A stretch of 64,000 nucleotides of DNA from a phage, in the sequence record PZ452608.1, one strand, 5' to 3'. The position numbers and the translations under genes are program-made. Numbering within the stretch: position 1 is the first letter of the stretch; each line of letters opens with the position of its first letter. Under the pieces are notes generated by a model. It saw nothing but the letters and a program-made list of their open reading frames with translations, made no database searches and was not told the origin of the DNA. Positions 27,597-28,627 of the stretch are shown here, in pieces.

Positions 27597-28037
27597 TTAG
27601 AAAGGTTTTCTGCGTTGCTTGTTAATGTTAGCTTTCATAGCAGCTAAATGGTTTTGCTGTTCAATTAGTCGTGAACGTTCTTGGTGGCTAAGTGCCATAG
27701 TATTCACATTCTCAATTGCTTGAGTGGCTTGCTTTAAAGCTCGACCAATCTTACCAGACATTTTGCGTTTTGCAATAGTTGCTTGATGCTTAGGTTCAAC
27801 CACACGATAACCAACACCCATTGAAGCAACCAGATAAATCTTCTCTTCTTTAAGAAGCTTCTCAATAAACTTCTCAAGTCGGTTTAGACGTGTAAGTGCA
27901 TAAGCCTTCATTTCATCTTCGTACTTAACAATGTCACCTTGATAAGTTGGCTTCACAATACCTAAGAAGGTGTCCATCTCAGAATGTGATACAGTGTCAC
28001 CGTAACTAAACTTTGCTGCTAATGCTTTTGTATTCAT
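27597..28037 (-). CDS. Hypothetical protein (cassette gene 2)
   Basis: 146 aa ORF, ATG start, basic C-terminus KANINKQRRKPF; stop 3 nt after cassette gene 1. Confidence 0.5.
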   Translation of the reverse strand: MNTKALAAKFSYGDTVSHSEMDTFLGIVKPTYQGDIVKYEDEMKAYALTRLNRLEKFIEKLLKEEKIYLVASMGVGYRVVEPKHQATIAKRKMSGKIGRALKQATQAIENVNTMALSHQERSRLIEQQNHLAAMKANINKQRRKPF

Positions 28038-28039
28038 AA

Positions 28040-28627
28040 TTAAACGTTACCTTCTGAAATAACTTCTACAGAAAAACGACCAAAGCGTGGACGCCAATCA
28101 CCTACACCACAAAGGTTACCAGCATTTTCCAGAACCATCAAGAGTTCTTCTTTGGTGATTTGCTCTTCATCGAACATCAAACCAAACTCTACAGACCAGT
28201 CACGGAAGATTGGACGGTAGCTCATAACTCGTGCTGTACCAATCTTAACAGACTTAGCATAGATAAAGTCTGGATTCTTCGCAAGTTCTTGTGGGTTTGC
28301 TGGACAATTCTTGATAGTCATTGGGAAGACTACATCTGTCAGCATAATGGCTCGGTCAATTACCTTACCAAGTTTGTTTAGTTTTGCACCAGACTTGATA
28401 CAAGCCTCAATCATCTCACCGTTCATAACAAAACCTAGTTGCTCATCGTAGTAACAAGAAGTTACCAGTTGGCTTTCTGCTAAGAGCGCATAGTCTTCGT
28501 CAGTCTTTTTACGCTTACTGGACAGAGACTTGTGATATTTTGTCAGAGGGTTTAATGGGTCTGACAGCGTATCGTTATGGCTCAGGAAAGGACGAGTACC
28601 AGTGATTTTGATATTTAACAGTTTCAT
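28040..28627 (-). CDS. Hypothetical protein (cassette gene 1)
   Basis: ATG at 28627 with GGAG RBS (track start 28642 is GTG); 195 aa, no recognisable motif. Confidence 0.5.

Follow-up and report, generated by a model that had tools for sequence, protein, structure and literature searches.

Positions 27597 to 28627 of phage sequence record PZ452608.1, analysed here as a stretch of 64,000 nucleotides (the window), carry two adjacent genes for proteins of 195 and 146 amino acids (aa), which an original prediction had described as an attenuator-controlled cassette of unassignable, possibly accessory or counter-defence proteins. We conclude with high confidence that these genes and the DNA around them, window positions 27302-29025 on the minus strand, constitute a complete type II VIPR (Viral Interference Programmable Repeat) locus, the same system as that of phage SUSP1. 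The non-coding flanks are the heart of the system, and encode its guide RNAs (vrRNAs). VIPR is described in two bioRxiv preprints (10.64898/2026.04.26.720920 and 10.64898/2026.04.26.720927). As described there, Vipr, a minimal RAMP, forms a polymer along a vrRNA that has 9-16 YNNGG repeats (Y, pyrimidine; N, any base) and ends in a structured 3′ tail. Two neighbouring protomers bury each GGY, NN pairs with DNA, every third target base is skipped, and the outcome is an R-loop triplex with repression of transcription (10.64898/2026.04.26.720920, 10.64898/2026.04.26.720927). The SUSP1 experiments reported there comprise small RNA sequencing (sRNA-seq), pull-down, green fluorescent protein (GFP) repression and lambda assays (10.64898/2026.04.26.720920).

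The 195-aa protein is assigned as Vipr, a minimal Cas7-like RAMP, because the profile of its family matches PDB entry 36pp (36pp_D, “SUSP1 Vipr protein”) over the full length with E=1.3e-81, the one solved structure matched in this way, and because 191 of its 195 residues (98%) are identical to SUSP1 Vipr (genome KT454805). The four substitutions all fall outside the named contact residues. The SUSP1 functional residues H17, K33, R39, E71, M72, K82, G87, K88, R138, C173, D177, W178 and R179 are all present; these were named in the cryo-electron microscopy (cryo-EM) paper as contacts to G1, G2, Y3, the skipped base and the non-target strand (10.64898/2026.04.26.720927). A structure search, as the original prediction had recommended, was informative for this protein: the AlphaFold2 (AF2) model has a predicted local distance difference test score (pLDDT) of 94.3, and the top solved folds returned by Foldseek were Csm3/Cas7 and Cas6 RAMPs (probability 1.0, E ~1e-4, 9-15% identity). 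The G-loop can be seen in the protein. The Vipr family numbers 520 homologues (E<=1e-3) of ~190 aa each in phages and prophages of Proteobacteria and Actinobacteria, and its invariant motifs include SKRKKTDED and a C-terminal motif.

Window positions 27000-29400 are 100% identical to Escherichia phage wV8 (NC_012749/EU877232, Felixounavirus), and we identify the window as wV8 on this basis. Both open reading frames (ORFs) predicted originally are present on the minus strand at the expected lengths and positions: the vipr ORF, from the ATG at 28627 to the stop codon at 28042-28040, is wV8 gene 95 (gp95), and the 146-aa ORF, from the ATG at 28037 to the stop codon at 27599-27597, is gene 94 (gp94), both in NC_012749. 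Stop and start are separated by 2 nt (TAA-TT-ATG) rather than by the 3 nt first given. The statement that no motif could be assigned to either protein holds for profile libraries, since Pfam, NCBIfam and PADLOC gave no match for either and PHROGs placed them only in families of unknown function (phrog_4652 and phrog_5926); it fails against the PDB, given the 36pp match. The wV8 and Felix O1 genome papers contain nothing on the cassette.

The 146-aa protein corresponds to Vap1 of SUSP1, with 145 of 146 residues identical (99%). SUSP1 Vap1 is reported, in the available preprint text, as an accessory factor that raises protection and is predicted to bind DNA (10.64898/2026.04.26.720920). In the model of the wV8 protein, a winged-helix-like region at the N terminus is followed by a long helical hairpin and then a basic C-terminal tail; the protein ends in KANINKQRRKPF, in agreement with the basic tail noted earlier. 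From the published prediction and weak winged-helix-like matches, Vap1 is probably a DNA-binding protein. An exhaustive HMMER search found 234 remote homologues of similar length, among them the ORF next to the 48%-identical vipr of metagenome contig Ga0214472_10000321.

The guide genes were sought as 5-nt-periodic GGY (Y-NN-GG) arrays on both strands of the whole window. Only four such arrays exist, all on the vipr strand and two on each side of the cassette (Table 1). Arrays A, B, C and D have 13, 11, 12 and 13 units, respectively, within the published range of 9-16. Each is followed by a pseudoknot (PK) tail. The PK1 tail is identical to the tails of the SUSP1 downstream vrRNAs, PK2 to the SUSP1 vrRNA1 tail and PK2′ to the tail of the last SUSP1 vrRNA; the pseudoknot in the SUSP1 vrRNA tail has been seen by cryo-EM (10.64898/2026.04.26.720927). 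Both stems show compensatory substitutions between PK2 and PK2′, a comparison limited to three tail types, for which covariation statistics are thin. The repeats annotated “DR_4” in the record are the PK1 tails.

A near-perfect 17-19-bp hairpin with the consensus CCUNNUUAAAAGGUCUUU...GGGUCUUUUAANNAGG precedes every guide array. We found no discussion of the inter-guide hairpin as a functional element in the available VIPR preprint text. These hairpins may be vrRNA 5′-end processing or boundary signals, or a recombination module.

Table 1. Features of the wV8 VIPR locus, in the order of transcription, with positions in the 64-kb window.
Feature	Position	Strand	Description
sigma-70-type promoter	28998..29025	minus	TTGACA-16-TATACT, 11/12; upstream of first guide RNA
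hairpin H_A	28929..28967	minus	19-bp stem before array A; RNAfold -15.5 kcal/mol
vrRNA-A array	28864..28928	minus	13 YNNGG units, 5 with degenerate GG; NN = AA GT TC GC GA AT GG AG AT AT GC AA AT
vrRNA-A tail PK1	28833..28863	minus	H-type pseudoknot, GUAG/CUAC interleaved with GUCUCA/UGAGAC, read from the sequence; overlaps annotated DR_4
hairpin H_B	28791..28829	minus	between vrRNA-A and vrRNA-B; RNAfold -11.6 kcal/mol
vrRNA-B array	28736..28790	minus	11 YNNGG units; NN = CT GT AG TG AT AC CC GT GT AC AT
vrRNA-B tail PK2	28704..28735	minus	pseudoknot, GUGG/CCAC interleaved with GGUAG/CUACC
vipr	28040..28627	minus	195-aa Vipr, assigned as minimal RAMP (RRM core, G-loop, thumb) from PDB match, SUSP1 identity and AF2/Foldseek
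vap1	27597..28037	minus	146-aa Vipr-accessory protein, 2 nt past vipr stop
UUCG-tetraloop hairpin	27568..27587	minus	10 nt past vap1 stop, no U-run; RNAfold -13.6 kcal/mol; also in SUSP1
hairpin H_C	27531..27569	minus	before array C; RNAfold -17.1 kcal/mol
vrRNA-C array	27471..27530	minus	12 YNNGG units; NN = AG AC AT GG AG GA CT TT AA AG CT AT
vrRNA-C tail PK1	27440..27470	minus	sequence identical to 28833-28863; inside annotated DR_4 repeat
hairpin H_D	27399..27436	minus	between vrRNA-C and vrRNA-D; RNAfold -11.1 kcal/mol
vrRNA-D array	27334..27398	minus	13 YNNGG units, 6 with degenerate first G; NN = AG AG TC TG AC GA GT TG CT AA TT TT AT
vrRNA-D tail PK2′	27302..27333	minus	pseudoknot, AAGG/CCUU interleaved with GGCAG/CUGCC; locus end

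The cassette is indeed isolated by long structured non-coding DNA, as originally noted: apart from one small unannotated ORF, the flanks 27210-27596 and 28643-29181 are non-coding, and their 17-19 bp hairpins have predicted energies of -11 to -17 kcal/mol. Their interpretation as transcription attenuators, with alternative hairpins and terminators in the leader and trailer of a two-gene accessory or counter-defence operon, did not survive. Such an operon would fit the long perfect hairpins both upstream and downstream of the genes and the single strong promoter ~370 nt upstream of vipr. However, a terminator scan of 27100-29300 returned 0 terminator-like sites, with 1.6 expected in shuffled sequence; none of the flank hairpins has a U-run after it, and the UUCG hairpin was not scored as a terminator. 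The attenuator idea is therefore rejected, and we leave it next to no probability. The hairpins also recur on both sides of the genes and between arrays, unlike a leader, and what lies between them is a 5-nt-periodic GGY array plus pseudoknot, the design of the SUSP1 vrRNAs that were detected by sRNA-seq and pull-down. The unit of promoter, hairpin, array and tail is found, too, in relatives that have no genes to attenuate, and Rfam (Rfam 15) gave no match in 27100-29300 at E<=1, riboswitches and leaders included. The structured flanks are thus read as vrRNA guide genes with pseudoknot tails and hairpins. An identical promoter sequence lies upstream of SUSP1 vrRNA1 and of orphan vrRNAs in Vipr-less relatives; in wV8 it probably drives the upstream vrRNAs together with vipr-vap1. 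The next promoter past the vrRNA-D tail (27282-27254) belongs to gene 93.

The nearest analogue of the vrRNA arrays among attenuators is the target of TRAP, which in trp attenuation of Bacillus binds ~11 triplet repeats, (G/U)AG-N2-3, at 5-nt spacing in the leader, one subunit to each. The proteins are unrelated. In contrast to the TRAP leader, VIPR arrays are found downstream of the genes as well, and in relatives without the genes, the wV8 locus has no terminator/antiterminator pair, and the variable dinucleotides carry information rather than acting as spacers. A TRAP-like ring protein on a 5-nt-periodic leader had been considered, and was dropped after the PDB and literature match.

The locus is an already known system, a near-identical copy of SUSP1 type II VIPR. 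As in SUSP1, it lies between the genes for DNA ligase and the homologue of gene 93. The two phages agree in both proteins, in the promoter, in the hairpins between guides and the UUCG hairpin, in all three types of pseudoknot tail and in the YNNGG design, and their guides match the same satellite family. The guides differ: wV8 has two vrRNAs upstream and two downstream of the genes, whereas SUSP1 has one upstream and three downstream, and no NN string is common to the two phages. One supplement of the preprint (10.64898/2026.04.26.720920) does not list wV8.

The wV8 locus works like a Cas7 backbone but is no CRISPR-Cas system. With the class 1 CRISPR-Cas backbones (Cas7/Csm3/Cmr4) it shares the RRM, G-loop and thumb fold, one protomer per fixed RNA increment with periodic base flipping, and a variable guide with a conserved structured handle. 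The VIPR increment, however, is 5 nt (3 sequestered, 2 read) compared with 6 nt (5 read) in CRISPR, its code is non-contiguous (NNx), it is phage-encoded, its guides are stand-alone genes instead of spacers, and sequence identity is only 9-15%. No CRISPR array, cas1/cas2 or nuclease was seen at the wV8 locus; the only repeats were the 5-nt arrays and the DR_4 tail repeat, and PADLOC had no match for the cassette proteins.

Candidate natural targets were found in a phage satellite. The 3′ part of vrRNA-D, with its tail, matches unannotated DNA in 30 E. coli chromosomes. The matches fall in islands of ~11-15 kb, among them L007 461-15923, L009 3257-16004, L017 3454-14930, L018 and L019, whose insertion site is either the DUF72 gene yecE or the interval from tonB to yciI. 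Their gene content includes a large serine recombinase, baseplate and tape-measure proteins, and small hypothetical proteins, with a Dam-like methylase or an HNH endonuclease in some; certain copies contain many insertion sequence (IS) elements. At least two islands, L007 and L009, have a vrRNA of their own (13960-14054) with a phage-type PK2 tail. These E. coli islands are the satellite of the VIPR preprint, in whose available text the SUSP1-targeted satellite has tape-measure and baseplate homologues of SUSP1 (10.64898/2026.04.26.720920).

The wV8 guides were scanned against six satellite loci from E. coli chromosomes (L007, L009 and L017 among them) at skip lengths of 0-3 nt, with 200 unit-order shuffles. 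With a 1-nt skip, vrRNA-C matched 21 of 24 positions at a conserved non-coding, palindrome-containing satellite site (L007 13536-13570), with weaker matches at the homologous site in other satellites, and vrRNA-D matched 21 of 26 in the satellite recombinase gene (L007 1217-1254, L017 4138-4175); for each guide, 0 of 200 shuffles scored as well. All the bases skipped in the vrRNA-D target are codon wobble positions. At skips of 0, 2 or 3 nt neither guide scored above 18. As a positive control, SUSP1 vrRNA d3, for which no shuffles were run, matched 21 of 22 in the same recombinase gene. Within the 64-kb window there was no self-target at >=80%, the best self-match being <=18. At least two of the four wV8 guides are thus predicted to be aimed at a phage satellite in E. 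coli chromosomes, and these two follow the published skip rule. By analogy with SUSP1, the role of the wV8 locus would most likely be the suppression of a parasitic satellite. The satellite's own vrRNA reached only 20 of 24, outside the island in the IS621-torZ intergenic region, and this match was judged non-specific.

Parts of this account are less well supported. No convincing target was found for vrRNA-A or vrRNA-B in the six satellites: the best for vrRNA-B was 17 of 22 at the same tape-measure site in four satellites, where 10 of 200 shuffles did as well and the skips fall at codon position 1, and the best for vrRNA-A, 19 of 26 at the start of a hypothetical gene in L009, was not significant (22 of 200 shuffles as good). 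IMG/VR contained no exact match to the full-length NNx pattern of guide B, C or D. Arrays A and D contain many degenerate GG positions and may be partly decayed. For the Vap1 fold, there was no significant structural match. A 9-unit sub-pattern of guide A gave six matches in IMG/VR, on unrelated environmental contigs; none extends to the other units, and they were set aside as chance or a common peptide motif.

A VIPR locus in wV8 might also have its main targets outside the yecE and tonB-yciI satellites, in competing Felixounaviruses, other prophages or host genes, or hold a guide set that is in part decayed and non-functional. Guides A and B, without a significant match in the six satellites, the 5-6 degenerate-GG units of arrays A and D, and the imperfect C and D matches (87% and 81% of NN positions, with mismatches clustered at one end) would all agree with that. 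Against it, no shuffle out of 200 equalled C or D, several satellites carry their sites at homologous positions, this element is also the one matched by SUSP1 guides, and the available preprint text reports that 18 of 20 assignable guides of the clade converge on that satellite (10.64898/2026.04.26.720920). The scan, moreover, covered six satellite variants out of the 30 genomes matching the vrRNA-D 3′ portion and tail. We regard other main targets or a decayed guide set as unlikely. Nothing contradicts the assignment as a VIPR locus itself.

The mode of action in wV8 is transferred from SUSP1, because the proteins are 98-99% identical and the promoter and tails are identical. One strong promoter would give vrRNA-A, vrRNA-B, vipr, vap1, vrRNA-C and vrRNA-D, with vrRNAs of ~100 nt expressed and loaded into ribonucleoprotein particles. 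Vipr would bind with one protomer per repeat, burying GGY and presenting the NN dinucleotides, and the resulting filament would pair NN with double-stranded DNA, skipping every third target base (target = NNxNNx...). The R-loop triplex so formed would block transcription, with no cleavage of the DNA, and Vap1, small and probably DNA-binding, would enhance silencing.

A filament acting mainly on RNA (transcripts), like the type III Cas7 backbones, might be expected from the closest solved folds, which are Csm3 subunits of RNA-targeting type III complexes, and from the cryo-EM finding that the complex can pair with single-stranded RNA (ssRNA) (10.64898/2026.04.26.720927). Yet ssRNA gives mostly incomplete filaments and no triplex (10.64898/2026.04.26.720927), and the available preprint text describes SUSP1 guides that silence on either strand and natural targets on both strands (10.64898/2026.04.26.720920). 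In the recombinase gene the two guides differ in orientation: wV8 vrRNA-D has the sense of the template strand, SUSP1 d3 that of the coding strand. The vrRNA-C target is a non-coding, palindrome-containing region. An RNA target is in our view highly improbable, and we retain DNA as the substrate. Near-identity to SUSP1 makes the wV8 module a putative RNA-guided, DNA-binding silencer of competing mobile elements, here a phage satellite, and not an inhibitor of host defence as the counter-defence proposal would have it; the broader guess that these are accessory genes of conflict was roughly right, as the module takes part in genetic conflict.

The locus was extracted from nine other Ounavirinae, giving ten phages with wV8. 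Proteins, promoter, hairpins and tails are nearly invariant among them, while guide number (1-4, by tail search), placement and NN strings vary, and some guides are common to several phages. In the 298 units of the 23 unique arrays from these ten phages, Y never varies (100%), and conservation is 99% at G5 and 80% at G4, values inflated somewhat by the rule used to collect units (>=2 of 3 among Y, G, G), and the N positions have an entropy of 1.89-1.91 bits each. The guides are thus hypervariable on invariant scaffolds. At least the tail-proximal part of the vrRNA-A array, which is all that extraction recovered, also occurs in phages bumzen and LF82P5.

The vipr-vap1 DNA (27597-28627) is present in 118 phage records, compared with 297 for the adjacent ligase gene (29182-30318), which agrees with the predicted accessory status of the cassette; it does not belong to the core replication or morphogenesis genes. 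Identity is >=95% in 114 of these 118 records, whereas the ligase is mostly 80-95% identical, which suggests recent spread of the cassette by recombination or an unusually strong constraint. The cassette is a presence/absence polymorphism in Ounavirinae, and guide sets are reshuffled among near-identical effectors. A tblastn search with Vipr found 14 distant phages besides the 118 Ounavirinae records, with hosts including Gordonia, Mycobacterium, Pseudomonas and Listonella. The record GU169904, “Staphylococcus phage SA1”, encodes at 91679-92263 a Vipr 99.5% identical to the enterobacterial Felixounavirus protein, and its host label or assembly looks doubtful. A Joint Genome Institute (JGI) metagenome contig (Ga0214472_10000321; locus L003, 7844-9247) has a Vipr homologue of 48% identity in the layout array, vipr, Vap1-like ORF, array, array; the Vap1-like ORF directly follows the distant vipr, as in wV8 (blastp E=4e-4). 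The tail of this locus differs (...GGCAAGGGCUAYUUU), and the surrounding phage genes form a replication/recombination block that includes RecA, a 5′-3′ exonuclease, endonuclease VII and Pol III alpha.

Guides also occur without the effector. In all five Vipr-less Felixounaviruses examined, the interval from ligase to gene 93, corresponding to window 27210-29181, holds one or more orphan vrRNA units (Si3, L020 385-666; ASO1A, L021 385-812; BPSELC-1, L028 385-814; JLBYU28, L029 385-822; IME338, L030 385-667). Each unit consists of a 5′ hairpin, 10-12 YNNGG repeats and a PK tail, with GGY retained and a different NN string in each phage, and the promoter motif lies upstream in four of the five genomes. 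No Vipr gene was detectable elsewhere in these five (one place per record in one search; tblastn in another). Mooglevirus Sf13 (L031) has no orphan unit; its spacer there is just 85 nt long. In the six satellites, nothing matched the orphan guides of Si3 or ASO1A at >=75%. In the available text of the preprint, Vipr-less vrRNAs are described from satellites only, and we found no mention there of orphan guides in phage genomes (10.64898/2026.04.26.720920). Recombination between guide modules could have left the orphan units as deletion scars; alternatively, they may serve as guides in trans or as decoys. That they are functional rather than scars, loaded in trans by Vipr from a co-infecting relative or soaking up the Vipr of a competitor, seems to us a speculative option with perhaps a minor share of the probability.

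The surroundings of the cassette are as originally stated, a block of nucleotide metabolism and replication genes: its neighbours are thymidylate synthase (td), dihydrofolate reductase (DHFR; frd), DNA ligase, DNA polymerase and small hypothetical genes. The longest ligase ORF (29182-30318, minus strand) is 378 aa from the ATG at 30318; RefSeq gives 366 aa (1101 bp), and in other phages the ligase is annotated at either length. Just upstream of the vrRNA promoter, at 29032-29178 on the minus strand, an unannotated ORF encodes 48 very hydrophobic residues (MFSTVILFILVVFVLSYVASKLLDTSFAMGVLFTIFCFVTHIAIRTFL) and starts 3 nt past the ligase stop codon. It is annotated in phage Alf5 (Alf5_087) and kept in the Vipr-less ASO1A; in SUSP1, it is absent and a different sequence stands at that position.

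The recently discovered VIPR is important: its Cas7-like protein is carried by phages, uses a gapped RNA code to read DNA and may be older than CRISPR. Because it is almost identical to the SUSP1 system, the wV8 locus brings no new principle. Its value is practical: gp94 and gp95, long listed as hypothetical proteins, and the annotated “DR_4” repeats can now be named in a phage well known for O157:H7 typing and biocontrol, and four natural guides are added, of which two have satellite targets that can be identified. The orphan guides of Vipr-less relatives are perhaps worth following up. Were they functional, the guides would be separable from the effector, and co-circulating phages and satellites could exchange either as public goods or weapons; wV8, where recombinogenic guide modules flank the genes, would then hold the “full” allele of a presence/absence polymorphism.

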